64,000 bases of DNA, from positions 3,992-67,991 of the forward strand of contig JAJCZM010000049.1 in NCBI GenBank assembly GCA_029262375.1, written 5' to 3'. Shown in pieces: positions 15,539-39,456 of the stretch. The DNA comes from Deltaproteobacteria bacterium (lineage in GTDB: Bacteria; Desulfobacterota; Binatia; UBA1149; SPBQ01). Every line of letters begins with the position of its first letter. Position 1 is the stretch's first letter. Under the pieces are notes generated by a model. That model did not search any database, was not told the DNA's origin, and saw only the letters and a list, made by a program, of their open reading frames with translations. Made by a program: the position numbers and the translations under genes.

Positions 15539-15627
<89 letters not shown>

Positions 15628-15707
15628 CTACAACCGAACCTTTTCAAGAACTTGCGTGCCCCGCGCAATGGTCACGAGGCACAAATCGCCCGCTACCGTC
15701 ATCTCGC

Positions 15708-18119: not shown

Positions 18120-18178
18120 GACATACCTCCGAATTGTGAAAACGTTTTTAGGAATCGTGACTCGGTCGATCAGAACCG

Positions 18179-19621: not shown

Positions 19622-19738
19622 TTGGAACCTCCAGGTCGAAGCGCGTCCGACGAGCGGCGTTGATACCCGTTAGAACGGGCTCGCCGTTTCGCACGGAGGA
19701 ACCTGAAGCAGCGAACAGAATCGGATTCGGATTCATCG

Positions 19739-21141: not shown

Positions 21142-21153
21142 CTCCGTGCGCTG

Positions 21154-21399
21154 CTAGTTCGCCGCAATTCTGTCGAAAGATTCGACCGGCTCGCGTAAAC
21201 GGAACATCTCCTCGACCTGCATACCCAGTAGCCCACTGAGCAGAACGGCGTAGAGTAGCGGCGGATTGGCTTCAACGGACAACGTTCGAAGAACTGATCG
21301 ATATGGAATGCCCGTACGCTCGGCCGCCGCGCTTGCCGACATGCGAATGCTGGATAGTTCTTGTCGGATGTTGTTCTCGATCGTGCCTTGCGAATTCAT
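21154..21399 (-). CDS. Small XRE-family helix-turn-helix regulator
   Basis: 81 aa. The HTH pattern is SASAAAERTGIPYRSVLRTLSVEANPPLLYAVLLSGLLG. Confidence 0.65.
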   Translation of the reverse strand: MNSQGTIENNIRQELSSIRMSASAAAERTGIPYRSVLRTLSVEANPPLLYAVLLSGLLGMQVEEMFRLREPVESFDRIAAN

Positions 21400-21930
21400 G
21401 ATGCTCTCCTCTCTGGTGGCGATTCTTGTGACACGCTACCACGCGCCGAATGCCGCCCGCTTGTTCCGACGGCTACTCGCGACTCGCAACGACGCGGAAG
21501 ATAGCGCCGAGAAATGTTGTCGCTCAAGCGGTTTCACTTGCTGTACGACAAGTCCCCGCCGTCGTTCGGCCGCGACGGCATGTCACGGGCCGCAACGACC
21601 GTCAGGAAGCCGACCATCGTTCGTCAGCGAGTGTTTTGGCGATAGACGCCTCTGTGCGCGCACGAGGGGATCTGGTCGGGAACGTTGCCGTCGCGCTGGG
21701 CGATGTTCCAGCCCTGTGGCGGCTGACGACGACCGAGCCGAGTCGACCCAGGTTGGCAATTCGGTGCAGGCAACTCGCGCGCCCACCCGTTCGCGGCCCG
21801 TAGCGTGCCGTGGCAGCGTGGCACGCCCCCGAATGCCCGTCGATTCGTTGACACGACTGCTTACGCGCGGCTACTACAGATACTTACGAGCCGCGTGTTG
21901 CGGCCAGTCACATTGCGGGAGGGGAAGAAC

Positions 21931-22764
21931 ATGGGCTTCGACAATGATCAGGATACTGGAGACGGCAGACTAGATCTGATCTTGCAGTTCTTGTTGCTAC
22001 GTCGGCTCAGCCAATTCGACTGGCCCGTGCAAAGCATCGAACTCTTCAATTCCTTGTTCAAAACTCGTAGCTCTAAACAGCTCCCAGGCTGGCTGAGCAA
22101 AGGAACTAGAGAACGCGCGCTGGCAAACCTGACCGGGCTCGGCTTCGTAGATTCCGTACAACTCAGCGGCCAGGGTGCATGCACGCCGCACGGATATCGC
22201 ATCACGACGCAGGGGCGGGACGCGCGTGCGCGCATCGCGCACGAACTACTACGAACGCCCGCCTTCTGGCTGCACGCTCGGCCCTGGCCATACCTGATGA
22301 TGGAAGTGCAGGACGAGATCGGCGCTGACGATATCGACGCAAGCATCCTCGCACTGGAGACTTACCGTCAACACTGGTGGGACTGGTTCTCGCTAGGCTC
22401 GCAGCTTGTGGCGACCTTCAGAACACAGAACAATGAAGGTGAGATCGAATTCGCCGTCGAAGGATGTCATCAGGCGCACCTCGCGGCCGTGAAGGCCATT
22501 ACCCGCGAACTCGACGCGACGATCGACGAACTCCGCGCACGTCGGTCAGAGCGCGAGAGCGAACAGATACGGAACGGCACGAGCTATGAGCAAGGACATC
22601 ATCGAACTCTCCGAGGTGACAAAGGTCTACGGTCGGGGATCCACACAGGTCACCGCGATCAAGAGCCTGAACCTGACGATCCCGCAGGGGCAGATGTGCG
22701 CGATCACTGGCCCGAGCGGATCAGGCAAAAGCACGGTGATGCATCTCGTCGCAGGATTGGCTAG
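21931..22764 (+). CDS. Hypothetical protein with winged-helix-like N-terminus
   Basis: ATG at 21931 preceded by GGGAGGGGAAG. MGFDNDQDTGDGRLDLILQFLLLRRL...GYRITTQGRDARARIAHELL looks like a MarR/PadR-type wHTH. The last ~60 codons overlap the ABC ATPase gene out of frame. Confidence 0.55.
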   Translation: MGFDNDQDTGDGRLDLILQFLLLRRLSQFDWPVQSIELFNSLFKTRSSKQLPGWLSKGTRERALANLTGLGFVDSVQLSGQGACTPHGYRITTQGRDARARIAHELLRTPAFWLHARPWPYLMMEVQDEIGADDIDASILALETYRQHWWDWFSLGSQLVATFRTQNNEGEIEFAVEGCHQAHLAAVKAITRELDATIDELRARRSERESEQIRNGTSYEQGHHRTLRGDKGLRSGIHTGHRDQEPEPDDPAGADVRDHWPERIRQKHGDASRRRIG

Positions 22765-23377
22765 ACCGACCCACGGCCGAATTGTCGTCGACGGAATTGA
22801 CCTGACCAACGCCAAGGACGACGAGGTCACCGTGATGCGGCGCCAGCGCGTCGCAATGATTTTCCAAACCTTCAATCTGCAAGCCGCTTGGACCGCAGCC
22901 GAGAACATCGCCTTCCAGCTCAAGCTCGCTGGATTTCCGAAGAATGAGCGCAAAGGAAAGGTAGACGCGGTGCTGGGCCGGATGGGATTGAGCCATCGTC
23001 GCAATCACTACCCTGACGAAATGTCTCGTGGCGAACAGCAGCGTGTCGCCATCGCACGGGCTCTTGTAGTCGAGCCGCGTATTCTACTCGCCGATGAACC
23101 GACGGGGAGTTTGGACTCGATTGCCTCTGATGAGATCGTCCAGAGTCTCGTGGACCTCTCCCACGAAGATAAAGTGACCACGCTACTCATAACGCACGAT
23201 CCGGCGGCGGCGGCGCTCGCCGATCGCCAGATCCGTCTGAAAGATGGGCAGATCATCTCGGATCGGACTCGGAACTATGAGTACAGCGAGATCGTAGACG
23301 CGCAAAGAGCGACAGCCGAGCAAGAAGCGGTCGAGTCATTGGAACTCACCGATAAAGAACGGAAGCTACTGAACTAA
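22586..23377 (+). CDS. ABC transporter ATP-binding protein (MacB/LolD-type)
   Basis: 263 aa. Walker A GPSGSGKST, signature MSRGEQQRVAIARAL, Walker B ILLADEPTGSLD. Confidence 0.9.
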   Translation: MSKDIIELSEVTKVYGRGSTQVTAIKSLNLTIPQGQMCAITGPSGSGKSTVMHLVAGLARPTHGRIVVDGIDLTNAKDDEVTVMRRQRVAMIFQTFNLQAAWTAAENIAFQLKLAGFPKNERKGKVDAVLGRMGLSHRRNHYPDEMSRGEQQRVAIARALVVEPRILLADEPTGSLDSIASDEIVQSLVDLSHEDKVTTLLITHDPAAAALADRQIRLKDGQIISDRTRNYEYSEIVDAQRATAEQEAVESLELTDKERKLLN

Positions 23378-23393
23378 GAGAGACGAAGCTCGT

Positions 23394-24407
23394 CTACCAA
23401 ACGACCGCTGCGCCGCCGAGCGATAGTCCCGCGGACCCTGCACCCAGAAAAACCTTCTTCCCCACCTCGAGCACGCCTTCCTTACGGGCCTTCTCCAGCG
23501 CTAGTGGAAGATTCGCCGATGCGCAGTTGCCGCACTCGACGAGCGTAGAAATGGCCTCTTCGGGCGCGCGACCAAAGAGGCCCGCAGCGAATGCAGTTAG
23601 TCGTGGGCTTACCTGATGCGGAACGAGGACTTCGACGTCATCGGCGCTCCAACCGGCTGCCTCGAGCGTGGCCTGGACAACACCGGGCGCGAGTTCATGC
23701 ACGGCGGCGGCCATCGGTTTCATATCGCAAATGAGATAGTCGCGACCCTTGTCCGAGAGATCTAGCGAACCGCGCCCTTTCGCCAGGCAGTGCGGCCACA
23801 GATCGCTGCGGGCAACCGTATGGCTCGCGTAGATTCCACGATCCGGGTCATCACCCGCGCGGTGGTCGCGCACGAGAATCGCTCCGCCTGCGTCTCCGAT
23901 AGTAAACGAGGCGATATGCTTCATCGGATCGGCACCGTCCGCGATCAAGGGCCAGGGGATGCCATGGCTGAGCACCTCTCCGGAGGCGACCAGAACCGTT
24001 CGGTACATCCCCGAGCGGATGAAGGCTTCAGCAATTCGGACACCGTCAAAAACTCCGTTGCACGCATTCCCGGCATCGAAACACGGTACACAGTCCCAAC
24101 CTAGCTTGGCTTGTAGAATGTGCGCCGTTGCAGGTTCGATAACATCAGAGAACGCCGCACCGTAGATCAGACAATCGATCTCAGCAGGAGCGACGGACGC
24201 TCGAGTCAGCAGATCTTGCACTGCCAGCAGCGCCAGATCCGACCCGTCATCCGCATCATCACTGATGTGTCGCTGACGCACGCCGGTAATCGCCTCAATC
24301 CAACCCGGCTCAACGTCACCGGGTAACCGTCGCTCGAGCTCTCGGGTAGTTTCGACGGTCGGCGGAAGGTACGAGCCCACCGCATCAATGATCGGTCGTT
24401 TAGTCAT
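23394..24407 (-). CDS. 3-oxoacyl-ACP synthase III (FabH/KAS III-like) enzyme
   Basis: 337 aa. Has a Cys (DAGNACNG), His (VPHQVS) and Asn (GNCASANLP) triad context. Its ATG overlaps the permease stop (ATGA at 24404-24407). Confidence 0.8.
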   Translation of the reverse strand: MTKRPIIDAVGSYLPPTVETTRELERRLPGDVEPGWIEAITGVRQRHISDDADDGSDLALLAVQDLLTRASVAPAEIDCLIYGAAFSDVIEPATAHILQAKLGWDCVPCFDAGNACNGVFDGVRIAEAFIRSGMYRTVLVASGEVLSHGIPWPLIADGADPMKHIASFTIGDAGGAILVRDHRAGDDPDRGIYASHTVARSDLWPHCLAKGRGSLDLSDKGRDYLICDMKPMAAAVHELAPGVVQATLEAAGWSADDVEVLVPHQVSPRLTAFAAGLFGRAPEEAISTLVECGNCASANLPLALEKARKEGVLEVGKKVFLGAGSAGLSLGGAAVVW

Positions 24408-26998
24408 GCATCCTCAGCAACGGCTGCGGCTACGTCGAGTTGGCGCAGCTGCCAAAGCGGCAGGAGCAACGCCAGCGAACAAACGCCGAGAATCGTCGAT
24501 ACACCTCTCAGAGAAATTGCCCATGGAAATCCGAAGTCCAATACCCATCCTAACAAATAGGCCAGATGGTATTTCACCCAAAGGGATCCCGATACGAAGC
24601 CGCCACCTAGACCGAGGCCCAGACCGGCAATCATGACGACACCAAGTTCGAGAACAATCGCGGTCACGAGCTGCTTTCGTGTCACGCCCTGCCCCACGAG
24701 CCGTGCGATATCGCGGCGTCGATCGTGAAAATTAGTGAAGAGGAACAACAGTAATCCCACGCCCGTCGGTACGAGAAGCACCGTGTAGAGCACATCGACC
24801 GAACCGAAAGCCACATAGAGTCGCTCTCGGTGGTAGTCGAGCAACTCCGCTACAGGCAGGACTTTGTACGCGGATTCGTCGCCAAGACTGGCCGTGATTC
24901 CCGCTCGAACAGAATCTACGGTCACGCCCCGCTCAACCCGCACAAGAAAACGCGTTACGCGATCGTCACGCCACCATTTCTCTAGCGTATCGGCAGAAAG
25001 CAGCACAACTCCTCTATCATTCGCGTAGTCGACTACAATTCCGCTTACCGGCACGCGCAAGCGTCCGGAAGGTGTCGTAAGCTCGAGCACGTCACCGACA
25101 CTCACGTTCGTGTGCCGCGTGACCGATTCGGAAATCAGAACGCCTTTGCCTTCGCGCACGTCGCGCAACGCGCGCCCAACATCGCCGTCAACGAACCAGC
25201 GCGCATAGTTCTCGCCTATCAGGAAACTCTTCGAGACTGCCTGGATGCCGATGCGCACCCCACCCATGTCCTGGCCTGGGATAAGGCGCCAGGTATCGAC
25301 CGACTCGACACCATCAACTGCCGCAATGGTTTCCAGCAACGCCCGCGCTTGTGGTTCTTCGAGCCAGCCTCCACGCGTGTGCGTCGAGGACACCGTCAGA
25401 TCGCCGGCCAGATAGTCGCCAACCCAGCTCTCGGCACTGGTTTCGAAACTGCGGAACACACCGCCCAGCGAGATAATCGCTGTCATGACCAATGCGATCA
25501 GCCCGACAACCCAGGACGTCCGCGGAGCCGATGACGACATGTGCATCGTCGCGACCTCTCCTGCAGCGCCGAACCAACGGTCGATCACCGGCGATAGTCT
25601 GCGAGATACCAAAGCGAGGGCGGCCGGGCAGAGACAGGCGATCCCGGCAAAGCAGATTACGGCTGCAACATTGCCGAGAACTTGAGACCGATACGCCGAC
25701 TCCAAATAGATGACCGGCACCAGTAGGATCCAAAAGACGAGGGCGAGTAATGTAGGCTTCCACACGTCCATCCCATGCGGCCGGTACTCGTTCTTCACAT
25801 TCGATACGGCCTCGACTGGATCGAGTTGAGACACGCGCTGTGCAGGTATCAACGCCGCCACGATCGCGGTAGAGACTCCGCCGGCGAACGCGAGTCCGAT
25901 ATCCATAGATGTTGCTGTCAATTCCGCCGTGGAAAGTCGCGTTAGATAGACGATCTCCATCGTACGAAGGAGCGCGTCGGAAAGAACGCGGGCGAGAGCC
26001 AAGCCTGCTACCACGCCTAACGCCGATGCTAAGACGCCAATGATCGCGGCCTCGCCTAAGACCATCAGTCGAATTTCGCTGCGCCGGACCCCAGCTGTTC
26101 GCAGCTGGCCCACCATTCGCCCGCGCGTCACCATCGCTGTAGAGATCGCCGAGTACGCGATGAACGCTGCAACCATTAGCGCCATTAAGACATAGCCGTC
26201 GACGATGGTCTGGAAAGCAGAGAGAGCTCGCTCTCGGTAGCCGGCGCGACCGAGCGGCTCATCTACGTCGTAAGTTGCACCGACAGCCGAGTTCAACTGG
26301 CTCCGCAACTCTACCAACGAAGTCTGCGGCCGCGGAACGATATCGATGTACGACGCTACGTCGCCGCGCAGACCCAGGAGCGCCTGCGCAGCAAACAGGT
26401 CCAGGACGGCAACAGGCTGGTTCAGCCCGCCGAGCGCACCGGGCTGGCTAAGCACACCGGCTACACGCAGATCCGTGGGACCGGTCGGCGCAACCACACG
26501 AATCGTATCGCCAACCTGAAGGGAAGCTCCCGGCGGCACGAGGATCGCCTTCGGATCGTTCAGAAGTTCGAGTGGATCATCGATACCGGCAATGCTGACG
26601 CGGTAGATCTCTTCTATGCGATCAACACTGAAGTCCATGCCGATCAGACGAAGGCCCTCACCGTTGTCAGCTCGTGGCACCGTCGCATCGATGATCGCGA
26701 TGGCAGCGGCCACGCCCGGATGCGCACGGACCTGAGCCAAGGCGCCCATGTCGACCGCCAGCTCGCCGCCTGGAGCGGTGAGCTGGAGTTCGGCCTCGCC
26801 GACAACCGCCATGATGTTCGCCTCGAATGCGACGTTGACCGCTTGGATTACAACTCGAAACCCGACCATCACCGACACGCCTGCAGCGAGCCCGACAATC
26901 ATCAGTAAGGTGCGGAATCGATTTCGTCGCAGTTCGCTGAGGGAGAAACTACGAAGGAGCGTAAGGGTGGCGTTTCGGCCTACTGGGAGATGGACCAT
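24404..26998 (-). CDS. FtsX-family ABC transporter permease with two FtsX domains (864 aa)
   Basis: Shows the N-terminal TM + large periplasmic domain + 3 TM pattern twice, typical of fused MacB/YbbP-like permeases. Confidence 0.8.
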   Translation of the reverse strand: MVHLPVGRNATLTLLRSFSLSELRRNRFRTLLMIVGLAAGVSVMVGFRVVIQAVNVAFEANIMAVVGEAELQLTAPGGELAVDMGALAQVRAHPGVAAAIAIIDATVPRADNGEGLRLIGMDFSVDRIEEIYRVSIAGIDDPLELLNDPKAILVPPGASLQVGDTIRVVAPTGPTDLRVAGVLSQPGALGGLNQPVAVLDLFAAQALLGLRGDVASYIDIVPRPQTSLVELRSQLNSAVGATYDVDEPLGRAGYRERALSAFQTIVDGYVLMALMVAAFIAYSAISTAMVTRGRMVGQLRTAGVRRSEIRLMVLGEAAIIGVLASALGVVAGLALARVLSDALLRTMEIVYLTRLSTAELTATSMDIGLAFAGGVSTAIVAALIPAQRVSQLDPVEAVSNVKNEYRPHGMDVWKPTLLALVFWILLVPVIYLESAYRSQVLGNVAAVICFAGIACLCPAALALVSRRLSPVIDRWFGAAGEVATMHMSSSAPRTSWVVGLIALVMTAIISLGGVFRSFETSAESWVGDYLAGDLTVSSTHTRGGWLEEPQARALLETIAAVDGVESVDTWRLIPGQDMGGVRIGIQAVSKSFLIGENYARWFVDGDVGRALRDVREGKGVLISESVTRHTNVSVGDVLELTTPSGRLRVPVSGIVVDYANDRGVVLLSADTLEKWWRDDRVTRFLVRVERGVTVDSVRAGITASLGDESAYKVLPVAELLDYHRERLYVAFGSVDVLYTVLLVPTGVGLLLFLFTNFHDRRRDIARLVGQGVTRKQLVTAIVLELGVVMIAGLGLGLGGGFVSGSLWVKYHLAYLLGWVLDFGFPWAISLRGVSTILGVCSLALLLPLWQLRQLDVAAAVAEDA

Positions 26999-27011
26999 GG
27001 GTAGAATATAT

Positions 27012-27121
27012 AAGGAGCGGATGCTCGCCTTACGGGAACGTTACCCCACAGCCAGCAGGGCCACAAACATCTGATTCTGAAGGAAAAATTCGCCACCGCC
27101 CGGTTTGTGGCGGCCCTTTTT
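27012..27121 (+). promoter_or_regulatory. Leader-peptide-like mini-ORF (27021-27074) with two mutually exclusive hairpins and a T5 run
   Basis: AAGGAG at 27012-27017 precedes ATG 27021 (MLALRERYPTASRATNI, stop 27072-27074). GCCACAAAC (27060-27068) can pair with GTTTGTGGC (27103-27111). Alternatively CGCCAC (27091-27096) pairs with GTGGCG (27107-27112), followed by CCCTTTTT. Confidence 0.3.
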
Positions 27122-27186
27122 CATCGGAGAGCAGAGGGTAGATCAGGCGGATCATTGCGCGAGCGAGTAGCGGATCGCGCGTTCCG

Positions 27187-27281
27187 CATTTGTGCCCTGA
27201 GGCACAATTCCCGCCCAACCATGCCCAACAGTGCCTAACCCGATTCGCGAAAACGTTTACTTTTCGCGGCGCGTTCTTGGG
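27187..27281 (+). repeat. Island right-end element, copy a (palindrome TGTGCC-CTGA-GGCACA + ATTCCCGCCCAACCATGCCC + GCCTAAC + hairpin)
   Basis: Homologous by eye to 31818-31910 and 32716-32800. The internal hairpin is CGCGAAAA/TTTTCGCG. Confidence 0.7.
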
Positions 27282-27305
27282 TTCAAGTCCCCCTCCTCGC
27301 ACCAC
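27282..27305 (+). repeat. Direct copy 2 of the tRNA-Leu 3' end (att-like)
   Basis: TTCAAGTCCCCCTCCTCGCACCAC is identical to 15605-15628. The match extends 3 nt further to the left (GGG). Confidence 0.9.
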
Positions 27306-27432
27306 TTTAAGCCCTGATAGATCTGGCTTTCCCGACGCCTCATCATCTGCGACGGACAATTCGACGGACACTCTTTTTCAAACAATAAAAAGTTGCGGCC
27401 TTTACGGTCCGGTTGCAACGGTCGCGCCGCTA

Positions 27433-28584
27433 CTAGTCGAGTCCACAGATTCCCCAGTTCGACGCCGCCGATTCACAAAGGCCGCTAGTGTCACAGGCAA
27501 GGTTGGAGGCTTTCGGCTCCACGCAGCTACCGATGTCGACGCACAACGCAATATCGACGGGCGTATGGCAGCTGCCGCTGACTGTTGAGTGCTTGATGGA
27601 GAACTTCCCGCTTAGGTCCGGGTCCGGCACCTGCACGCCGTAGTTTCCGCTATTCGTAACGGTGACCCGCGTGAGAGAAATCTTCTCTTCGTTGTTTTGA
27701 AGGAGGCGAATACCGTCGCCGAGATTGTTGTCGACCACAACATCTCTTGCCTGCAGCCGGCTCGCTACGACCCCGTCTCCAAGGTTGTTGCTGACGACGG
27801 CCCCTTTGAGTTTCATATGACGGCCGTCGACTGCGTCTCCGAGATTCTCGGAGACATTGATCTCCTTGAGACTCGCGGTGCGCAGCACGCAGCCTCCACC
27901 GTCGTTTCGCAGAACGTCTACGCGCTTGAGTGAAGACTTCCCGATGGAGTCGATTCCAACGCTCCCGTTATCCGTAATCGCGGAATCTTTCAGGCGCAGC
28001 GTGCCCAGCTGTAGGGCGGTGCCGGGTATTTTGAACTGAACAATCCCGCTGGCGCCGTTGCCGACAATGGTCAAACCGGAGCCGTTGATGCGAGGAGCCG
28101 AGACGCCGTTGGCGCCGTTCCCCGTGATCACGAGATCGGTGAGTTTGAGCTTGAACGACGATGTGATGCCGACCAGCCCCCCTGTGATTGTTCCCGGTCC
28201 GTCGATACGCGATAGGCCGGCTAGGATCGATCGCTCGTTCGGATTGCCGGTCAGTGTGAAGCCAGCAAGGTTCAGACGGTGGTTGACGATTAGTGCAGGA
28301 CCGTCGGTGTATCCAGAGCAATCGAGATCGCCGGTGAGAAAACCGTTGTTGACGATTTGTCCGCAGGTGGTGACTGGTTCCTGAGCGGCGAGCGTCAGTA
28401 CGGGGAGAAGGAGTAAACTCGAGAGTGCCGCAGCTGCCGCGAGCGATGCTCGGAGGCCAGTGCGCGAGGCGAGTATGCGGGACTGAATCACAGCGATACC
28501 GGGTTCAGTATGGGCCCTGGCGCGAAGGTCAGTCAACGACGTTGCGGGCCCGGCACCAGGCAGGGCGTCGTCGCATACCGGCAC
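27433..28584 (-). CDS. Secreted right-handed parallel beta-helix repeat protein with Cys-rich C-terminus
   Basis: 383 aa. Has repeating ~22-aa units of the type NG..GI....G.L.L.DS.IT.N and a hydrophobic signal region (ASLAAAAALSSLLLLPVLTLAAQ). The start is uncertain. Confidence 0.7.
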   Translation of the reverse strand: MPVCDDALPGAGPATSLTDLRARAHTEPGIAVIQSRILASRTGLRASLAAAAALSSLLLLPVLTLAAQEPVTTCGQIVNNGFLTGDLDCSGYTDGPALIVNHRLNLAGFTLTGNPNERSILAGLSRIDGPGTITGGLVGITSSFKLKLTDLVITGNGANGVSAPRINGSGLTIVGNGASGIVQFKIPGTALQLGTLRLKDSAITDNGSVGIDSIGKSSLKRVDVLRNDGGGCVLRTASLKEINVSENLGDAVDGRHMKLKGAVVSNNLGDGVVASRLQARDVVVDNNLGDGIRLLQNNEEKISLTRVTVTNSGNYGVQVPDPDLSGKFSIKHSTVSGSCHTPVDIALCVDIGSCVEPKASNLACDTSGLCESAASNWGICGLD

Positions 28585-28623
28585 TCCTGCTTTCCGCCAG
28601 CGATCATCCGTTGATAACTTTCG

Positions 28624-28643
28624 ATTGTCCGTCGACGGACAAT
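28624..28643. promoter_or_regulatory. Perfect 20-bp palindrome ATTGTCCGTCGACGGACAAT upstream of the beta-helix gene
   Basis: Lies 40-59 nt upstream of the annotated start at 28584. The half-site GACGGACAAT recurs downstream of the gene at 27351-27360. Confidence 0.5.
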
Positions 28644-28715
28644 CGGTGCCCTACCCTGACCTACTGTGACCAACCGAGCGCACGAAAAGCCCTATCTCTT
28701 GCGCTTCCTATGGCC

Positions 28716-28739
28716 TTCAAGTCCCCCTCCTCGCACCAC
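28716..28739 (+). repeat. Direct copy 3 of the tRNA-Leu 3' end (att-like)
   Basis: Identical 24-mer. Homology to the region downstream of the real tRNA continues rightward to about 29520. Confidence 0.9.
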
Positions 28740-28818
28740 TACAACCAAACCTTTTCAATAACTTGCGTGCCGCGCGCAATGGTCGCGAGGCACAAGTCGC
28801 CCGCTACCATCATCTCGC

Positions 28819-29496
28819 TTATTCGCCGGCAAGCTCGGGAATGAGATCCGCAAGCAACTCAGCAGGCCAGTAACGCGGGATCAGACGATTGCCGTAGTAG
28901 AGCGACGGCCCGATAGGCATTCGGGAGATCTGCTCGGAGGTTAGATCGTATGCACTGCGCGTGTGGATCTCGGCCTCTTGCGCAAGCTCAACGTCAGCTA
29001 CGATCGCCTGCAGCGTCTGTTCCGACTCGAAGTCTGTAACGAATCGATCGGGATCCAAATCGAGCGCATCAGCCAGCTCACTCAGCGAGCGCGATTCAAT
29101 AGAAGCACAGTCGGGCAACAACGACTCGTAGGCCTCGAGCAGTTGTCCCTGCTTCGCCGCCGCATGGATTATACGCGCTCCTTTGAGCGCTCCCGGAAGC
29201 GTCCGCGTGCGAAAAGAACTATGAACCAGCGACCAAGCCGTGCCTTCAGCCTCCGTCGCATCCATCAGCGAGAACCCGCCACCCACCTGCGCGTAGTCCT
29301 CTCGGAATCGCGCCATGTCGAGTCCAGCACTGCTAGCCGCTTCGAACATCTCCGTCTCGCCCATCACAAGAAACTTCGGATCAGCTGGGAACTCCGATAG
29401 GAACTCGCGATGCTTCCCTTGATTGATCGATGCGAGACCACCGCGTAGCAACGTACGATGGAATCGAGCGTCACCATCACCGAGAAGCGTGCGCAC
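28819..29496 (-). pseudogene. N-terminally truncated paralogue of the DsbA-like gene at 15708-17033
   Basis: The 225-aa ORF aligns by eye, at roughly nine identical residues in ten, with the C-terminal 225 aa of the 15708 product. It lacks the signal peptide and the N-terminal half. Homology breaks near 29500-29520. Confidence 0.65.
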
Positions 29497-29650
29497 CGTG
29501 ATCGCCAGTCGATACGGTATTCCTTCGATGGACGGCTCATCGGCTCAGCTTGCCGCGGCGCCGGCTAACGCAACAATACCCCACGGAGTATTGTCCGTAG
29601 CGGCGATCCCGTCGTAAAGGATTGAAGATGGCGCGCACCAACGGGGTTCT

Positions 29651-30682
29651 ATGATCGAAAGCGGACGACGTCGCGAGATTGCCCAGACGATCGGGTCGAT
29701 CATGCTCGCCGGAGGACTGGCCGGCGCGCTCTACGGCCTGTTCTTCGAACGTTTCCACATCACCACGGAGATCCTGCAGGGCGCGGCAACGGGCCTAGTG
29801 CTGGGGTTCGTGCTGGCGAGCATCGACGCCGCGCTGATGTTTACCCGTACTGGCGAGTGGATACGCAGCGCGCGCTTCGGCGTGCTGCTCTCGATCCGCA
29901 CCAGCATCTACGTGTTCGTGATCGTCAGTGGCTTAATCCTGAGCGATATCGTTTTCGATCGCGACTCGATGTCGGAGGTCATGGCCGACGACAGCTTCGG
30001 CCACGACATTGCCTTCGCGCTGACGATCGCGATCACCGTCAACTTCGTCATTCTGCTGCGCGGCCTCCTCGGTCAGCGCGTTCTTTCGAACTTCCTGTTG
30101 GGCCGCTACCACACGCCCGTGATCGAGAGACGTGTCTTCCTGGTCGTCGATCTAATCGATTCGACCGGGATGGCCGAGCGTTTGGGCGACAGCCGGTTTC
30201 TCGAGCTGCTCAACCAGTTCTTCACCGACATTGCGGCCGCGGTGCTGGAAACGCGGGGTGAGATCTACAAGTACGTCGGAGACGCCGTCATCATTTCGTG
30301 GAGCGAAGTAGCCGCCCGTCGCAGCTCTCGGTGTCTCGTCTGCTACATCGAGATGCGGCGGCGACTCGAGGCACGAGCCGGCCGTTACATCGAACGGTTC
30401 GGCGAAGCGCCCCGGTTTAGAGCAGCGTTGCACGGTGGGCCCGTCGCCGCGGGCGAAATCGGAGATCTGAAACGCGAGATCGTTTTTCTCGGCGACACGC
30501 TCAATGCGACATTCCGAATCGAAGAGCTGTGCAAAGCACACGGCGTCGCAGGCATGGCTTCGGCCGCCACGGTGGCAGAGCTGCAGGTGCCGGACGGCAT
30601 CCGTCTCGAACCCATCGACGACGTGGTGCTGCGCGGCAAGAGCGGCCCGACGGGCCTAGTCGCATTCGATCTCACGCGTTAG
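29651..30682 (+). CDS. Membrane-anchored class III adenylate/guanylate cyclase
   Basis: 343 aa with ~5 N-terminal TM helices. The catalytic domain follows: VFLVVDLIDSTGMAERLGD...KYVGDAVIISW...FLGDTLNATFRIEE. Confidence 0.85.
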   Translation: MIESGRRREIAQTIGSIMLAGGLAGALYGLFFERFHITTEILQGAATGLVLGFVLASIDAALMFTRTGEWIRSARFGVLLSIRTSIYVFVIVSGLILSDIVFDRDSMSEVMADDSFGHDIAFALTIAITVNFVILLRGLLGQRVLSNFLLGRYHTPVIERRVFLVVDLIDSTGMAERLGDSRFLELLNQFFTDIAAAVLETRGEIYKYVGDAVIISWSEVAARRSSRCLVCYIEMRRRLEARAGRYIERFGEAPRFRAALHGGPVAAGEIGDLKREIVFLGDTLNATFRIEELCKAHGVAGMASAATVAELQVPDGIRLEPIDDVVLRGKSGPTGLVAFDLTR

Positions 30683-31256
30683 GCACAATCCTGCAAGCTG
30701 AAATCTTATGCGGCCGCGTTCAGGGACCTGGGCCTATCGGCCCGTCACCATTGTCAAAGCTATGAGCAGCTTCAGTTGCTTTTCATCAACGCTAGCTCCG
30801 AGAAGTTCTTCCTCGGGAGAAGTCCCGTTTTGAACGAGAATGATCTGTGTGATGATGGTCTTCCAAGAACCGCCGAGGCCTGGTTTGATGGTGGTCTTTA
30901 CGACTCCATCCGTGACACCATCTTTCGTCTTGTAGGTGCTCTGTGTCCGTCGAGAACATCCACACGCACCACCACGGCGCAGACGGCATTATCATTCATC
31001 ACCCGTTGCTCACCGAAGCGTCAGATCCGACGCCCCACCACCGGCTACCAACTGGTACGTCGCCGACGAAACGATATCCAAGACGAACGTTTGTATTGAC
31101 GGACCTTATGTCAGATGGGGCGGAACAGCGGGGCCGATCGGGTGTCTTCCCTAACGCCGAGGCGCTTCTCAGGTAAGCGGCGTCTATCGATCCTCTGGCA
31201 GCGGGAATTGTGCCCAACGGCACAAATCGGGGCATTCCCGACCCGCGCGGTCGCGC

Positions 31257-31526
31257 TCAATCATCGTAGACCTCTCGCCGATGACCGATCTTCACGATCA
31301 GCACGGAGTTCGGCGGTTCGATCGTATAGACAACGCGGTAGTCACCGACGCGCAGTCGTCGCGCACCTTTGAAGCTGTAGCGCAGCGGCTTGCCGAACTC
31401 GATAGGACTCGAGCCGAGCTTTTGCTCGATCGCCCTGCGGACGCGTCGCTTGGCCGTGGTCGAGAGTTTCGGAATGTCGTCACGAACAACGCTTTCCAAG
31501 TACTCGATCCGGTACTTCAATCCCAA
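31257..31526 (-). CDS. relE: RelE/ParE-family type II toxin
   Basis: 89 aa. GKPLRYSFKGARRLRVGDYRVVYTIEPPNSVLIVKIGHRREVY matches the RelE/StbE pattern. Confidence 0.85.
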   Translation of the reverse strand: MGLKYRIEYLESVVRDDIPKLSTTAKRRVRRAIEQKLGSSPIEFGKPLRYSFKGARRLRVGDYRVVYTIEPPNSVLIVKIGHRREVYDD

Positions 31527-31738
31527 GCCTTGTCGTGAGAGATTCGCTTCTGCTTCTTAGCGATTCGGTCGTCGGCTATCCGTGAGAAGTGCAGGTCCTC
31601 TTGATACTCCAACGCCTCCTCGATCAAACTCAAACCGACGCCCGCTACAGATTGGTCGCGTTGGCCCGAGAGGCGCTCGAGCGCCTTGTAAACATCGTCA
31701 TCGACCGTGATGTTGATCCGCTTTTTCGTTGTCGGCAT
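31517..31738 (-). CDS. Ribbon-helix-helix antitoxin (RelB/CopG-like)
   Basis: 73 aa. The N-terminal KKRINITVDDDVYKALERLS is an RHH strand-helix. 10-nt overlap with the toxin gene. Confidence 0.75.
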   Translation of the reverse strand: MPTTKKRINITVDDDVYKALERLSGQRDQSVAGVGLSLIEEALEYQEDLHFSRIADDRIAKKQKRISHDKAWD

Positions 31739-31817
31739 CGCTCACTACCTCGATTGTGAGTGTAACACCAGTGCGACACCTCGGTCAAGCACATCCGCGG
31801 CCTGCCGCGTAGTTCAG

Positions 31818-31990
31818 CGAATTGTGCCCCGAGGCACAGTTCCCGCCCAACCATGCTCGACGGGGCCTAACCGGATTCGCGAAGACGCAGTCTCTTCGTG
31901 GCACGTTCTTCCGCGCGACGCGCTGAGATAACTACTAGGCGGTTGCTTCGCGTGACCAGTACTCTCGCCCTCGCCATGTCGGGCCCAGGA
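31818..31990 (+). repeat. Island right-end element, copy c (with ~75-bp insertion before the att-like copy)
   Basis: GAATTGTGCC-CCGA-GGCACAGTTC palindrome at 31820-31842, then CCGCCCAACCATGC, GCCTAAC and the hairpin CGAAGA/TCTTCG. Confidence 0.7.
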
Positions 31991-32014
31991 TTCAAGTCCC
32001 CCTCCTCGCACCAC
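31991..32014 (+). repeat. Direct copy 4 of the tRNA-Leu 3' end (att-like)
   Basis: Identical 24-mer. The next ~24 nt (CTTCAGCTGAACTTTTTCAACACG) still resemble the sequence after the real tRNA (CTACAACCGAACCTTTTCAAGAAC). Confidence 0.9.
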
Positions 32015-32041
32015 TTCAGCTGAACTTTTTCAACACGGTAC

Positions 32042-32122
32042 ATTCCGCGCGGAATACACATGGGGCACAAATTGCCCAGCTCAACCCAAAAGCGCCTTGC
32101 GGGAATTATCGCATTCCGATAA
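32042..32122. promoter_or_regulatory. higBA-1 promoter region with two inverted repeats (candidate HigA operators)
   Basis: ATTCCGCGCGGAAT is a perfect palindrome at 32042-32055. TTATCG-CATTC-CGATAA lies at 32106-32122, 10 nt before the higB ATG. A related TATCG-C-CGATA lies at 35051-35061, upstream of higBA-2. Confidence 0.45.
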
Positions 32123-32131
32123 CCTAGTAAT

Positions 32132-32422
32132 ATGATCGAGTCCTTCGGGAATCGCCTGGCCGAAGATCTGTTCGCCGACCGACGCTCGAAGGTGATCCGG
32201 AGGTTCCCGCAGGAGCTGTATCGTGCAGCACGACGCAAACTGCTCTATCTGCACGACGCGGCGGCTCTCGGCGATCTGCGCGTGCCACCTGGCAACCGCC
32301 TGGAGGTATTGCGCGGCGAATGGAAAGGGTTCCATTCTATTCGGATCAATGATCAGTGGCGCGTGGTATTTCTGTGGTCGCCCGGAGTCGCAACGGAAGT
32401 ACATGTAATCGACTATCACTAA
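32132..32422 (+). CDS. higB: HigB-family type II toxin (plasmid maintenance system killer)
   Basis: 96 aa. MIESF...LRVPPGNRLEVLRGEWKGFHSIRINDQWRVVFLWSPGVATEVHVIDYH is the HigB hallmark. Confidence 0.9.
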   Translation: MIESFGNRLAEDLFADRRSKVIRRFPQELYRAARRKLLYLHDAAALGDLRVPPGNRLEVLRGEWKGFHSIRINDQWRVVFLWSPGVATEVHVIDYH

Positions 32423-32449
32423 GCGCGCAGGTCTAGAGGCACACTAACG

Positions 32450-32716
32450 ATGAAGACACCGAAGAACCCGTTCCATCCTGGAGAGATACTGCTCGAAGAG
32501 TTTCTCGAGCCGGCAGGCATCACCCAAGCTGCGTTCGCCGAAAAGATCGGTTGGACGCGCGCGCGACTCAACGAACTCATCCGCGGCAAACGTGGCATCA
32601 CGGCCGACGCAGCTCTCGACCTTTCCGAGGCATTGAAGACCACACCCAACTTGTGGATGAACCTACAGTCGACGTGGGACCTGGATCAGGCAAGTCGCAG
32701 GCGCAAGGCGGCGTAA
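32450..32716 (+). CDS. higA: HigA-family antitoxin (XRE HTH)
   Basis: 88 aa. HPGEILLEEFLEPAGITQAAFAEKIGWTRARLNELIRGKRGITADAALDLSEAL. Confidence 0.9.
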   Translation: MKTPKNPFHPGEILLEEFLEPAGITQAAFAEKIGWTRARLNELIRGKRGITADAALDLSEALKTTPNLWMNLQSTWDLDQASRRRKAA

Positions 32717-32800
32717 ATCTGTACCCAAAGGCACAATTCCCGCCCAACCATGCCCGATAGTCCCTAACTGAAATCGCGAAGACGAATACTCAGGCACCTC
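32716..32800 (+). repeat. Island right-end element, copy d (no att-like copy attached)
   Basis: TGTACC-CAAA-GGCACA, then ATTCCCGCCCAACCATGCCC, CCCTAAC and GCGAAGA...TCTTCGC. Starts at the higA stop and runs into the 3' end of the amidase gene. Confidence 0.6.
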
Positions 32801-32833
32801 TTGCCCATCTTCGCTCAAAAATTGCCCCGCTGT

Positions 32834-35394: not shown

Positions 35395-35700
35395 ATGGCT
35401 CGACTTGCTCCAGTAACCCCCGGCGAACTCCTACTCGAAGAGTTCCTCAAGCCAATGGGAATCACGCGCTATCGCCTTGCCAAGGAGATCGGCGTCCCTG
35501 CGCAGCGGATCGGCGAAATCGTAGCCGGTCGTCGAGCAGTCACAGCGGATACCGACCTGCGGCTGTGCCGCTTCCTCGGGCTCTCGAACGGCTACTGGCT
35601 TCGTGCGCAAGCGGCTTACGACACCGAAGTTGCCGAACAGGAACTCGCGGACGAGCTAGACGCGATCCGCCCGTGGCGCCAATCGCGCGCAAACGCGTAG
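35395..35700 (+). CDS. higA: HigA-family antitoxin (second copy)
   Basis: 101 aa. TPGELLLEEFLKPMGITRYRLAKEIGVPAQRIGEIVAGRRAVTADTDLRLCRFLG. Confidence 0.9.
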   Translation: MARLAPVTPGELLLEEFLKPMGITRYRLAKEIGVPAQRIGEIVAGRRAVTADTDLRLCRFLGLSNGYWLRAQAAYDTEVAEQELADELDAIRPWRQSRANA

Positions 35701-35820: not shown

Positions 35821-38800
35821 TTAAAGCAGCGCCGGGCAGATGAGCGGCACGGGCGTACCAACCGCGACCCTCAATACGAGCAGTGCATCCGCCGATGTCG
35901 TCTCGCCATCGCCGCTCGGGTCGCAGACGGCTATGTCGACTTCGTTGCAGTCGGCCAGACCCACCGCAGCCCGTAACACTCCAAGTGCGTCGCTGGCTTC
36001 CACTATGCCATCGCCGTCATAGTCACCGCATAGCTCGCCGCAGGTCATAGAACAGACATCGCCATTATCGAGGTTTCCGTCGTCGCAGCGCTCTCCCTGT
36101 TCAACGATTCCGTTGCCACACTCGGTGGGAGCGCAAAGACACGTCACTTGGCAACGACCGGGACAAGCGTCGTCATCGTACCCGTCACATTCCTCACCTT
36201 GACTGCCGTCAGCAAAGTGATCACCACACATCGGCGCAACGAATGTCGCGTCGACCACATAGAAAGGAACGGCCTGGCCGTTGTAGCCCGCCACGACGAA
36301 CTCGTAGGTGCCTGGGGCAACGACATGACTCAGAAATGAGCAGTAGCCTGGCCCGCTGTCATCATCGTAGGCTACCTCGACACGCTCTCCAGTCTCATTG
36401 ACGAGATAGAGCGTCATGATCGTATCGTAACTGCAGTCACCTTCGCCATCGCTGGTCTCCAGGACGACGCGCACCTCCGTAGACGTCGTGAACCCGTAGA
36501 CGTCCGATTCTCCATCCTCGAAGCCGCCCTCGAAACGACCACCGTCACCGATTTCGATGGGCTCTACCAGGCAGGACGCATCGCAGCCATCGTCGACGGC
36601 AAGATTTCCGTCATCGCACTCTTCGCCAATCCCGACATCGACTCTCGCATCCCCGCACCCCGGATTTTCGAATTCGACATCGAGCAGGTAGGTATCAGAG
36701 CTGGCGACAGAGTAGGTTGAAACCACAAGCTCATACTCTCCTGGCGACAACGCACGGACGATCGTGCGACAGCCGATCTCATTGAAATCGCCCCTATCAA
36801 CGTACGTAACTTCGACGCCCGTAGTCACATCGAAAAGAATCATGTCGTGGTGATAGGGGACACCACATCCTCCGACATCGTTTGTCATCTCGGCGAGAAC
36901 TCGCGTGTTCTCGTCGACACTGAGAGTAAATATATCGAAGACGCGGGGGGCGGTGCCTGATTCGAAGATACCGCCTTCGGTGATGTCGATGGGTTCTACA
37001 TCGCAAGCTGCATCGCAGCCGTCTCCACCGGCCACGCCACCGTCATCGCACGTCTCCTCGGCGGCGAGATCGACCACGCCGTCGCCGCAGGCGAACGGCT
37101 CAAACACCACCTCGAAGACATAGGGCCCCAAGTCCTCAATGTCGTAGCTGCGAACCTCGATGACGTATTCGCCCGCCTCGAGTGCCTCCACAAGCAGGGC
37201 GCAGCCTAGGTCGTTTCTGGTGCCCGACGCCACGTATTTATCGGGCCGGCCGGACTCTGCCTCATACAAGGTCATCTCCCCGTCAAAGGGGAAGGGACAG
37301 CCTCCCGAACCATCTTGAACTTCAGCGCTTACGCGCAGCGACTCCTCCAAGGTGAATGTGAACAGATCGAACGAACGAGGCTCGAACCGGCCGTCGAAGC
37401 TCCCCCCGCCGGTGACGTCGGTCGCCTCTACTATGCAGGCGTCGTCACATCCATCGCCCGAGCTAAGATTGCCATCGTCGCATTCTTCCGCGATATCGAG
37501 ACCGACATCCACAATTCCATCCCCGCACTGAGGGTCCGAGAATGAAACGTCGAGGACGTAGGCTGGAAGCGTGTCGTAGAAACGCGAGTCAATGACGAGT
37601 TCGTACTCCCCCTGCTCTATCGTCATCACTAGCACCGGACAGCCGCCTGCGTTTATATCGCCCGACCTTACCCAGAACCCCGAGTCCGTAAACTCGTAAA
37701 GTCTCATCTCAATGTCGTAGGGATCCGGACAACCTTCGATACCGTCGCTCACAAGGGCCTCAATGCGCTGGAGGGAAGCGACTGTAAACGAGTAGCGGTC
37801 GAAGGACCCCGACGTCCGACCTCCCTCGAAGCGACCACCTCCGGAGATGTCCAAGCTCTCCACTTCGCACACAGGGCTACACCCGTCGCCGGCGTCGGTA
37901 TTGCCATCGTCGCACTCTTCGGACTCGGCAAGCGAGACGGATGCAGCGCTGCTCCCGACCCCGATGAGAGGGTTGGAATCGTCTGTTCCCGTTCCGCCAC
38001 TGCCGACGCCCACTGGATCACGTGTTCCGTCACCGCACGTCGGAACGGGCATCGAGGCTTCCAACACGTAGGAGCCGCCGGCACCGCCGTCTCTACCCGA
38101 TACGATGAGTTCGTAGCGGCCGGCATCAAGTTGCCGTACAACCGTCGAACAGCCCAACGCATTTGTCGTGCCGCCGGCAACGAACGACACGGAACCATCC
38201 GACTCTGTGAAAAACAGCATCGTCTCCGTGTCGTACGGAATCGGGCATCCATCAATTCCATCATTGATCTCAGCAGAGAATCGCCGCACGTCGCTCAACA
38301 AGAACGTGAATCGATTGAGAGCGCCGGGACCGATGGAGGCGGAAAACTGGCCGCCGCCGCTAATGTCGATGGGTTCGGCCCGGCAGAACGAGTCGCAACC
38401 ATCACCGTCCGTGAGGCCACTATCATCGCACTCTTCGAGCGCATCGACGATACCGTCGCCACAAAACGGATCCTCGAAGGTGACATCGAGCGTGTAGTAC
38501 GGTAGCGCTCGGTCGCGTGACTGGACGACGACCTCGTAGGTTCCTTCGGGCAATGATCGGCGCATGAGCGCGCACCGATCATCGTCTCTGTCGCTGTAGC
38601 CGATCCTGTTCCGCTGCCCGTCGGAACCGACAGCGAACAAAGTCAAGTCCTCCGTGTAGGAACAGGGAACAGGCGAAGAATCCAGACGCGCGTCGAGTCT
38701 AGCGGGACTCGAAAGCGTGAAGGCGAACAAGCCGAATGATCCGGCCTTGAAACCGCCGACGAATCGCCCACCATCGCCGATATCCACCGATTCTACGTTG

Positions 38801-39456
38801 CATTCGGCATCGCAGCCATCGAGATCCGCGCTGTTGCCATCATCGCATTCCTCTCCCGGACCGATATCTCCGTCGCCACACGTAACCAGACCTACGACGA
38901 TGTCGACTACGTACGCCTCGACGGCCCGACCACCAAAACCGCTGACGATGACTTCGTACGAACCGGACACCAAGGACACCTCGAGCGCCGAGCAGGGCCC
39001 CACTCCAGAGTCGTCATCGCGCTCGAGTGTATCGCGGTCCCCGTTGGGGGAGACGGAAAAGATAGCGATCGCCGTATCTGCCGGACACCCTCCCAGGCCG
39101 TCGCTGGTCTCGATCGCCACGCGCGACGCGCCGGTCAACGACAAACTGAACAGATCGAAGGAGCCGTCCGAGAATGCACCGTCGAAGCGACCGCCACCGC
39201 TGGCATCTACCGCCTCGACCATACACTCAGGATCACATCCGTCGCCTGCCACAAAGTTGCCGTCGTCGCACTGCTCAGAGGCATCCACGCTACCGTTGCC
39301 GCAACTCACAACGACCTGACGGTAGCCCGTCCCGTCGGTCGCGAGATCTTGATATCCCTGCTGGGTCCAGCCGACGACGAACGTCGAGCCAGGAGTGGGC
39401 AGCGCTAAGCAAAAGAGAACGAGGAAGGTCAGAAAGACCGAGACCGGCCGATACAT
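35821..39456 (-). CDS. Giant secreted modular protein: ~9 Cys-rich CDDGN-type repeats alternating with ~100-aa beta-sandwich-like modules, C-terminal dockerin-like pair
   Basis: The track ORF runs to 39684. A signal-peptide start MYRPVSVFLTFLVLFCLALPTPG lies at 39456. Repeats are of the form CGDG..D.GEECDDGN...GDGCD..C.VE (Myxococcus cysteine-rich repeat type). The tail is CGDYDGDGIVEASDALGVLRAAVG...CDPSGDGETTSADALLVLRVAVG. Confidence 0.85.
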   Translation of the reverse strand: MYRPVSVFLTFLVLFCLALPTPGSTFVVGWTQQGYQDLATDGTGYRQVVVSCGNGSVDASEQCDDGNFVAGDGCDPECMVEAVDASGGGRFDGAFSDGSFDLFSLSLTGASRVAIETSDGLGGCPADTAIAIFSVSPNGDRDTLERDDDSGVGPCSALEVSLVSGSYEVIVSGFGGRAVEAYVVDIVVGLVTCGDGDIGPGEECDDGNSADLDGCDAECNVESVDIGDGGRFVGGFKAGSFGLFAFTLSSPARLDARLDSSPVPCSYTEDLTLFAVGSDGQRNRIGYSDRDDDRCALMRRSLPEGTYEVVVQSRDRALPYYTLDVTFEDPFCGDGIVDALEECDDSGLTDGDGCDSFCRAEPIDISGGGQFSASIGPGALNRFTFLLSDVRRFSAEINDGIDGCPIPYDTETMLFFTESDGSVSFVAGGTTNALGCSTVVRQLDAGRYELIVSGRDGGAGGSYVLEASMPVPTCGDGTRDPVGVGSGGTGTDDSNPLIGVGSSAASVSLAESEECDDGNTDAGDGCSPVCEVESLDISGGGRFEGGRTSGSFDRYSFTVASLQRIEALVSDGIEGCPDPYDIEMRLYEFTDSGFWVRSGDINAGGCPVLVMTIEQGEYELVIDSRFYDTLPAYVLDVSFSDPQCGDGIVDVGLDIAEECDDGNLSSGDGCDDACIVEATDVTGGGSFDGRFEPRSFDLFTFTLEESLRVSAEVQDGSGGCPFPFDGEMTLYEAESGRPDKYVASGTRNDLGCALLVEALEAGEYVIEVRSYDIEDLGPYVFEVVFEPFACGDGVVDLAAEETCDDGGVAGGDGCDAACDVEPIDITEGGIFESGTAPRVFDIFTLSVDENTRVLAEMTNDVGGCGVPYHHDMILFDVTTGVEVTYVDRGDFNEIGCRTIVRALSPGEYELVVSTYSVASSDTYLLDVEFENPGCGDARVDVGIGEECDDGNLAVDDGCDASCLVEPIEIGDGGRFEGGFEDGESDVYGFTTSTEVRVVLETSDGEGDCSYDTIMTLYLVNETGERVEVAYDDDSGPGYCSFLSHVVAPGTYEFVVAGYNGQAVPFYVVDATFVAPMCGDHFADGSQGEECDGYDDDACPGRCQVTCLCAPTECGNGIVEQGERCDDGNLDNGDVCSMTCGELCGDYDGDGIVEASDALGVLRAAVGLADCNEVDIAVCDPSGDGETTSADALLVLRVAVGTPVPLICPALL

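Follow-up and report, generated by a model that had tools for sequence, protein, structure and literature searches.

The attachment site of phage lambda, attP, is the model for heterobivalent tyrosine integrases: a P arm (P1-H1-P2-X1-X1.5-X2/F-H2) and a P' arm (H'-P'1-P'2-P'3) flank the core (C-O-C'), with arm sites in both P and P' and three Xis sites plus integration host factor (IHF) sites between arm and core (PMC4880445). Elements that keep their attachment sites but have no genes for integration or transfer are described as cis-mobilizable elements (CIMEs), such as those related to ICESt1 of Streptococcus thermophilus (PMC5704250), and tandem islands behind small-RNA or tRNA genes have been reported at ssrA of Dehalococcoides (PMC3146451) and as tycheposons of Prochlorococcus (bioRxiv 10.1101/2020.12.28.424599). 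Here, we analyze a repeated element of about 90 nucleotides (nt) in a 64,000-nt stretch of the bacterial contig JAJCZM010000049.1 (the window), where it marks the right ends of islands stacked behind a tRNA-Leu(GAG) gene. The element is probably the attR-side half, or P arm, of the attP of a family of integrative islands of Gemmatimonadota-like bacteria whose insertion point is the T-loop of tRNA-Leu(GAG). As such, the feature is of an ordinary kind; what is unusual is that the arrays consistently lack integrases and that their arm motifs co-vary so cleanly.

The locus resembles lambda attP in several respects. Its core is shared with the bacterial site and flanked by arms of about 90-100 nt and about 65 nt; a short motif recurs in both arms, oppositely oriented in P and arranged in tandem in P' with a period of 10-12 nt; and three phased candidate sites lead from the P-arm motif to the core, next to which lies a putative AT-rich bend site. 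Because a shared tRNA core, two arms with the motif in both, phased sites and an AT-rich element together make up the layout of a lambda-type attP, we assign the element to the P arm. Unlike in lambda, the core is the T-loop of a tRNA gene, the two P-arm sites stand only 4 nt apart as a near-perfect palindrome, and the predicted site comes without an int or xis gene.

Comparison with the tandem systems gave a similarly mixed picture. Both attL and attR are kept in the islands, and genes for integration and transfer are absent, so the islands fit the CIME definition (PMC5704250). They also share with the ICESt1-related CIMEs, which derive from integrative and conjugative or integrative and mobilizable elements, the tandem accretion in which one site-specific integration follows another at a target gene's 3' end. 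In contrast to those, all of the roughly 14 islands seen here are integrase-less, the array yielded no functional partner element, host phylum and target (tRNA-Leu GAG) differ, and mobilization is only putative. The Dehalococcoides ssrA islands likewise stand in tandem behind one small-RNA gene, are bounded by 3'-end repeats of about 20 bp, insert at the T-loop and carry a conserved motif directly 5' of each repeat, and some lack an integration module and have been proposed as CIMEs; unlike the islands here, they encode a CcrB-type serine recombinase beside attL, and their upstream motif measures 15 bp rather than being a 90-nt multi-site arm (PMC3146451). Tycheposons are cargo islands at tRNA genes, too, separated only by partial tRNA copies, with degenerate remnants beside rare intact elements and a site that is heterogeneous in populations; they differ in having their own tyrosine recombinases and replication modules and in their lineage (bioRxiv 10.1101/2020.12.28.424599). 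An integron attC site was rejected, as the junction is the tRNA 3' end and not GTTRRRY, and the genes before the array are gap-pgk-tpiA-secG and not intI/attI.

The tRNA-Leu(GAG) gene, located downstream of this gap-pgk-tpiA-secG cluster, is the only tRNA that ARAGORN and Rfam found in the window. Its last 23 nt, beginning with the T-loop at 15605 (TTCAAGTCCCCCTCCTCGCACCA; TTCAAGT...), recur exactly at three further places and nowhere else, so that four tandem islands, A to D, can now be marked with their boundaries (Table 1). The cargo is of a typical kind. Island A carries a DsbA-like protein, an M12 protease, an ABC/FtsX transporter and a KAS III; island B a beta-helix protein; island C a truncated DsbA-like copy, a nucleotide cyclase and a ribbon-helix-helix (RHH) antitoxin-ParE pair; and island D HigB-HigA. 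At its start (28741-29540), island C partly duplicates, with 93% identity, the left end of island A (15628-16430), including the 5'-truncated gene for the secreted DsbA-like protein.

A repeat search of the window returned three homologous copies of the element, at 27190-27278, 31822-31910 (83% identity) and 32719-32807 (66%), and an nhmmer profile built from them matched the three at E = 1e-30, 9e-25 and 8e-21. Repeat search, profile and sequence inspection thereby confirm the first-pass annotation, which had reported three homologous copies of about 90 bp with palindromes, a common block (TTCCCGCCCAACCATGC, found in copies a, c and d) and hairpins; the count needs correction by a fourth, diverged copy of a second type, which had been missed. 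The elements always lie on the island side, immediately 5' of the tRNA repeat. The att-like sequences noted beside them proved to be exact copies of the last 23 nt of tRNA-Leu(GAG): copy a abuts its repeat and ends at the T-loop, as expected of an arm adjoining a core that is identical to the target and duplicated at the island ends; copy c is separated from its repeat by 77 nt of unrelated sequence with no relatives in any fetched locus; and copy d, beginning 3 nt past the higA stop codon, has no core repeat on its 3' side. Spaced palindromes of the form TGTGCC-N(2-24)-GGCACA occur three times in the 64-kb window against 0.05 expected, and GGCACAA 13 times against six expected, with ten of the 13 within 15.6-32.8 kb. 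These counts exclude a chance origin.

Distances within the arms, counted from the T-loop or the tRNA end, are constant across unrelated contexts, in the window as well as in related loci, and one short motif appears in P as well as in P', each time at a set distance from the core (Table 1). The left ends of islands A, C and D are homologous to each other (repeat families D3 and D4). Two of the wider-spaced palindromes listed by the first-pass annotation (15656-15686 and 28768-28796) are the left-arm sites of the same islands (15654-15698 and 28765-28809); a third (21804-21825, GCGTGCC..GGCACGC) lacks the ACAA part and looks unrelated. The isolated palindrome at 31209-31224 is real, and belongs to an inverted copy of the 27-nt element head (31202-31240), and that at 43712-43727 to a partial head (43710-43734). 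In related sequence totaling about 310 kb, the triple of phased repeats, G[AC]C[CT]NA[CT]-N3, is found solely in these elements; the three 10-nt-phased repeats and the conserved GAAAA tract are element-specific and are candidate sites for accessory proteins. The whole element is described by the signature TTGTNNN-N4-NNNACAA, G[AC]CC[ACT]AC-N3 three times, GAAAA, then TTCAAGTCCCCC.

Left and right arms of one island carry matching variants of the half-site, and related metagenome loci show this as well as the window. Window islands A, C and D share GGCACAA, whereas window island B has CGGACAA; the variant is GTGACAA for L017, GGTCCAA for island 1 of L030 and (G/T)GGACAA, including GGGACAA, for island 3 of L030. 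For six independent islands, the observed left-right pairing was the optimum of 720 permutations (p = 0.003), and adding two mismatched islands of L013 gave p = 0.004. In L017 and in island 1 of L030, the direct motif is retained (about -81 to -90) without a hairpin-forming palindrome, which favors a protein site over a folded strand. Among the roles first suggested for the element, that of recombinase or accessory-factor arm sites is therefore the one supported, by the fixed T-loop distances, the recurrence of the motif in the left arm and its left-right co-variation. If the arms are still in use in trans, their co-varying motifs would constitute a natural series on the divergence of integrase arm specificity.

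Candidate roles can be proposed for the individual sub-sites. The inverted pair at -92/-81 and the direct left-arm copies at +49 to +63 would be arm-type sites, contacted by a tyrosine integrase through its N-terminal domain or by some other type-specific factor. The phased repeats at -70, -60 and -50 may be sites for a cooperative, DNA-bending accessory protein of the Xis or recombination directionality factor (RDF) type, and the A-tract hairpin from -36 to -14 could provide a further bend or an IHF-like site. The T-stem halves around TTCAAGT would then act as core sites, with the T-loop as the overlap region of strand exchange.

To place the element in a wider context, we drew on scans of sequence collections and on contigs carrying homologs of the RHH antitoxin or of SecG; the protein-based route yielded more than the scans. 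The window itself derives from a biofilm metagenome. A genome collection yielded one true match, L001, a Gemmatimonadota metagenome-assembled genome (MAG), plus two chance matches; two scans of metagenome collections for element copies gave no matches, and scans of viral collections gave none or chance matches only. In L013-L016, contigs with RHH homologs, elements of types 1 and 2 stand in three-repeat arrays. As a route to further copies, RHH homologs were given up: the protein is widespread across phyla and linked to the element only partly. In the window, L001, L013-L016, L028 and L030, the full element lies only directly 5' of tRNA-Leu-type repeats and in one orientation. The secG-tRNA-Leu locus is empty, with no island, in the relative L024/L025, holds one island ending in a variant arm in L017-L019 and L028, and three islands in L030.

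Type-1 arms are 68-84% identical between hosts whose SecG proteins are only 51-59% identical and whose cargo is unrelated, and type-2 arms of the window and L013 are 92% identical next to differing cargo. The contigs L020, L021 and L023 have identical SecG and tRNA, yet different DNA directly after the tRNA, and L015 differs from L013 and L014 in the island that precedes a shared island. Together, these differences indicate that the locus is polymorphic within populations. Short contigs from salt-marsh and marine sediment start exactly at the palindrome and vary upstream of it, which defines where the element ends on its outer side. In one marine-sediment library, X22, nine or more contigs with differing contexts represent the element family, and the family is widespread in coastal sediments. 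Palindrome, three phased GCCCAAC repeats, A-tract and tRNA T-loop provide a handle for finding such islands in Gemmatimonadota metagenomes.

Several observations weigh against the element being a P arm. No cognate tyrosine integrase is encoded by the element; the 64-kb window contains no gene for an integrase or other recombinase (no Phage_integrase match), nor do the roughly 14 islands inspected in relatives, and none was found beside the tRNA in the SecG neighborhoods of relatives. Two islands of L013 have left and right ends of differing motif type. The conservation of the arms across distant hosts could stem from recent transfer and not from selection, and the assignment of sub-sites to integrase, Xis/RDF-like and IHF-like proteins is by analogy only. 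One unstranded 151-nt contig of an estuary metatranscriptome, X21, spans the element and the att repeat, making transcription conceivable. Finally, contigs of the source run showed no excision, circular or alternative junctions, a weak point, as contigs cannot show rare forms. The DsbA-like gene by the left arm was considered as a hidden recombinase and rejected; its product, which is truncated in island C, is a secreted protein with a thioredoxin fold. Given that no island encodes a recombinase, the islands would be either cis-mobilizable (CIME-like) cassettes relying on an integrase elsewhere or integrase-stripped relics.

Two sister systems support the general attP picture. The array in another MAG, L012 (4150-10700, minus strand), comprises four copies of a different tRNA-Leu-like end (GGTTCAAGTCCCGCTCCTCGCA), each with a 9-bp hairpin ahead of it (ACACACGCG..CGCGTGTGT) whose loop contains GAAAAG; the gene for a tyrosine integrase, at about 3050-4092, has at least two frameshifts, and its 3' end faces the adjoining att copy. 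An intact element of 9.3 kb with a 48-nt direct repeat sits at tRNA-Leu(TAG) in L032 (1926-11316). It encodes a Prim-Pol, a 568-aa protein, an HTH_17 (Xis-like) protein, an HTH_3 protein and an integrase of the L012 family, carries tandem CTGCTACCG repeats with an 11-12-nt period in both arms, and looks like a small replicative integrative element or satellite.

Whether the arms still function bears on the first alternative, namely that they are inactive relics of once-autonomous elements whose integrase genes were deleted, conserved only by recent insertion or transfer. This would account for the absence of integrases from every island, for the 77-nt insert that splits copy c from its core, for the missing core and degenerate palindrome of copy d and for the resemblance of island C to a partial duplicate of island A with its DsbA-like gene truncated; the frameshifted integrase of L012 and the source-run contigs, which lack alternative junctions, agree with it. 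We nonetheless consider it unlikely. Against it stand the arm identities of 68-84% between hosts with such diverged SecG and unrelated cargo, and of 92% beside differing cargo in the window and L013, and the different DNA behind the same secG and tRNA in L020, L021 and L023, taken with the differing preceding island in L015 versus L013 and L014, indicates recent reshuffling at att sites. Arm conservation in distant hosts, differing first islands and the lack of integrases in about 14 islands fit an active cassette system better than a graveyard. Going further, the tRNA-Leu(GAG) locus might be integron-like without a linked integrase, with one or a few recombinases encoded elsewhere inserting, excising and reshuffling integrase-less cassettes, an extension that we put forward as possible, if doubtful. 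Each cassette would carry a complete two-armed attP, consisting of a P arm of about 95 nt and a P' arm of about 65 nt, and several 'specificity classes' of arm motif would stand side by side in one array. Should the arms still work in trans, the locus would amount to a compact site of integrase-independent cassette exchange, in a phylum that has been little studied.

The remaining alternatives do without recombination. Two hairpins around a C-rich single strand, followed by a tRNA-like T-arm and CCA tail, could in principle belong to a structured small RNA that serves regulation or island maintenance. Most copies are predicted to form both hairpins, which RNAalifold also recovers; types 1 and 2 differ by a G-C to C-G flip at two pairs of hairpin 1, an A-U pair of hairpin 2 changes to G-C, copy c has a G-U pair that only the plus strand allows, and the X21 contig covers element and att. 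The hairpin stem does stay paired, as the first-pass annotation had noted, while the covariation it saw there amounts to a single A-T to G-C change common to copies c and d. In the aligned copies, double changes affect five pairs and trace to about two lineage-level events, flips that a palindromic protein site predicts equally, and the RNAalifold covariation term is unfavorable at +1.61. Hairpin 2 adopts another register in type 2, L017 and L030 island 1 keep the motif without the palindrome, no Rfam match was found at E <= 1 and no promoter- or terminator-like signal around the element. Folding also cannot explain why the motif recurs, and co-varies, kilobases away in the left arm, and we regard an RNA as improbable. 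Among related readings, a transfer-messenger RNA (tmRNA), permuted tmRNA or tRNA-like gene was rejected because ARAGORN and Rfam give only the genuine tRNA-Leu and a 5' acceptor partner is lacking; a small conserved minus-strand open reading frame because its ATG is missing in type 2; and a guide-RNA-like arrangement (scaffold plus tRNA-matching 'spacer', as in homing by TnpB or CRISPR-associated transposons) because an effector gene is missing and no target adjoins copies c and d. GGCAC-N5-CCGC in type 1 fits the GG-N10-GC spacing of a sigma-54 promoter, but type 2 does not and the -12 part is poor, and this reading was rejected as well.

That the palindrome is an operator, through which a local RHH or HigA/XRE antitoxin controls the last operon of each island, is very improbable. 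It does precede the start of RHH-parE, by about 85-95 nt, in island C and L001/L013, where a second, inverted copy lies downstream of parE; in L014 it precedes higB by about 100 nt, and copy d abuts higA. The element is, however, also present at islands A and B and at those of L028 and L030, which have no antitoxin or helix-turn-helix (HTH) gene, making the binding of local XRE/HigA proteins envisaged in the first-pass annotation unlikely. Moreover, the promoter-like site of RHH-parE falls between palindrome and gene rather than over the palindrome, L011 has RHH-ParE homologs without it, and distance to the tRNA repeat is constant where distance to genes varies. We attach next to no weight to a self-spreading dispersed repeat of the repetitive extragenic palindrome (REP) or miniature inverted-repeat transposable element kind that came to lie near island ends by coincidence, a role also listed at first. 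A short palindromic unit in several copies, isolated heads away from att (31202-31240, 43710-43734) and the many differing upstream contexts in the sediment contigs of X22 are what such a repeat would produce. Within the window, though, the motif is tied to island ends, occurring only in 15.6-32.8 kb apart from a partial copy at 43.7 kb and being absent from the core-gene parts (1-15.5 kb and 46-64 kb), and this confinement to islands speaks against a REP-like element. Full copies stand only beside tRNA-Leu repeats in a single orientation, and neither target-site duplications nor a REP-associated tyrosine transposase or other transposase were found.

Table 1. Features of the island array in the window and conserved positions within the arms.
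Feature	Position	Strand	Sequence or remark	Evidence
tRNA-Leu(GAG)	15539-15627	+	downstream of secG; 3' end from T-loop is the shared core (attB/attL core)	ARAGORN; Rfam tRNA, 51 bits
Island A	15628-27304			
Left (P') arm, island A	15628-15700	+	GTGCC..GGCACAAAT; direct GGCACAA site at +51 from tRNA end	repeat family D4
Copy a, right (P) arm of island A	27189-27281	+		repeat family D5; nhmmer profile
Copy a, palindrome	27189-27208		TTTGTGCC-CTGA-GGCACAAT	
Copy a, three 10-nt-phased repeats	27213-27242			
Copy a, A-tract hairpin	27246-27268		CGCGAAAA/TTTTCGCG	
Exact tRNA 3'-end repeat	27282-27304	+	attR core of island A, attL core of island B	
Island B	27305-28738			
Left (P') arm, island B	27306-27372	+	two tandem direct CGACGGACA sites 12 nt apart at 27350-27371	
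Type 2 copy, right (P) arm of island B	28622-28715	+	diverged fourth homolog	profile E 5e-24
Type 2 copy, palindrome	28622-28645		CGATTGTCCG-TCGA-CGGACAATCG, also written ATTGTCCG-TCGA-CGGACAAT	
Type 2 copy, phased repeats	28648-28677		GCCCTACCCT/GACCTACTGT/GACCAACCGA	
Type 2 copy, hairpin	28678-28704		its own	
Exact tRNA 3'-end repeat	28716-28738	+	core between islands B and C	
Island C	28739-32013			
Left (P') arm, island C	28739-28811	+	92% identical to that of island A; GGCACAAGT at +51	repeat families D3, D4
27-nt element head, isolated inverted copy	31202-31240	-	palindrome plus TTCCCGC, directly downstream of parE	profile; same position filled in L001
Copy c, right (P) arm of island C	31819-31913	+		repeat search; nhmmer profile
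Copy c, palindrome	31819-31842		GAATTGTGCC-CCGA-GGCACAGTTC	
Copy c, phased repeats	31845-31874			
Copy c, hairpin	31878-31900		CGCGAAGA/TCTTCGTG	
Insert, 77 nt	31914-31990	+	unrelated; from copy c to core repeat at 31991	
Exact tRNA 3'-end repeat	31991-32013	+	core between islands C and D	
Island D	32014 to ~32817			
Left (P') arm, island D	32014-32080	+	GGCACAAAT at +51, upstream of higB	repeat family D4
Copy d, right (P) arm of island D	32719-32817	+		repeat search; nhmmer profile
Copy d, palindrome	32719-32737		CTGTACC-CAAA-GGCACAAT, imperfect/degenerate	
Copy d, phased repeats	32742-32771			
Copy d, hairpin	32776-32814		GCGAAGA/TCTTCGC, loop enlarged to 25 nt	
Partial element head	43710-43734	+	TTGTGCC-TCAA-GGCACtgTTCCCG, also CTTGTGCC-TCAA-GGCACTGTTCCCG; intergenic, outside array	profile E 0.15
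Inverted half-site	-91/-92 relative to T-loop			
Direct half-site	-80/-81 relative to T-loop			
Three phased repeats	-70, -60, -50 relative to T-loop		G(C/A)CC(A/T/C)AC-N3, e.g. GCCCAACnnn	
Conserved tract in second (A-tract) hairpin	about -36 to -14 relative to T-loop		C-A-AAA	
Left-arm direct half-site copy	+49 to +51 past tRNA end			
Second left-arm half-site copy	+61 to +63 past tRNA end		often present, 12 nt after the first	

Further observations concern the arms and their neighborhood. In the left arms of islands A and C, CCGCTACC(G/A) directly follows the GGCACAA site (15690-15698 and 28801-28809), and the right arm of island A contains an inverted CCGCTAC (27166-27174). This sequence resembles the arm repeat CTGCTACC(G/A) of the integrase-bearing L032 and L012; the likeness may be coincidence or the trace of a second family of arm sites. 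The RHH-ParE cassette of island C (31257-31738, minus strand) sits between two inverted 27-nt heads, namely 31202-31240 and that of copy c. The counterpart of the 31202-31240 head in L001 is of the type-2 kind and lies within a longer inverted repeat (L001 5060-5150). The RHH protein itself is at least 90% identical across many unrelated metagenomes. In L011, an 8.1-Mb genome, two degenerate copies of the tRNA-Leu end (5214-5330 and 16355-16470, minus strand), with the T-stem intact, are each preceded by a third kind of arm comprising GGG(C/G)TAACCAGA, C-rich repeats and a hairpin CGCGA..TCGCG, and flank an 11-kb segment that holds the same RHH-ParE pair.

Downstream of island D, a 65-nt 3' fragment of the gene for a 101-aa HTH_3 (HigA-like) protein at 35597-35661 is duplicated at 41825-41889 (91% identity, 6.2 kb apart). 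The partial head at 43710-43734 may be a relic, an assignment that is uncertain, and together with the HTH_3 fragments it may point to an older, longer array extending past island D. The same region includes a gene for a 1287-aa protein with DUF4215, PPC and dockerin domains (35821-39684) that contains seven internal repeats of about 432 nt (family D2). At the other end of the window, 12-nt tandem repeats in 19 registers (GGCTTCGG-like, 9837-10214) lie within an open reading frame beside tol/exb genes and probably encode a low-complexity, Gly/Ser/Pro-rich linker.

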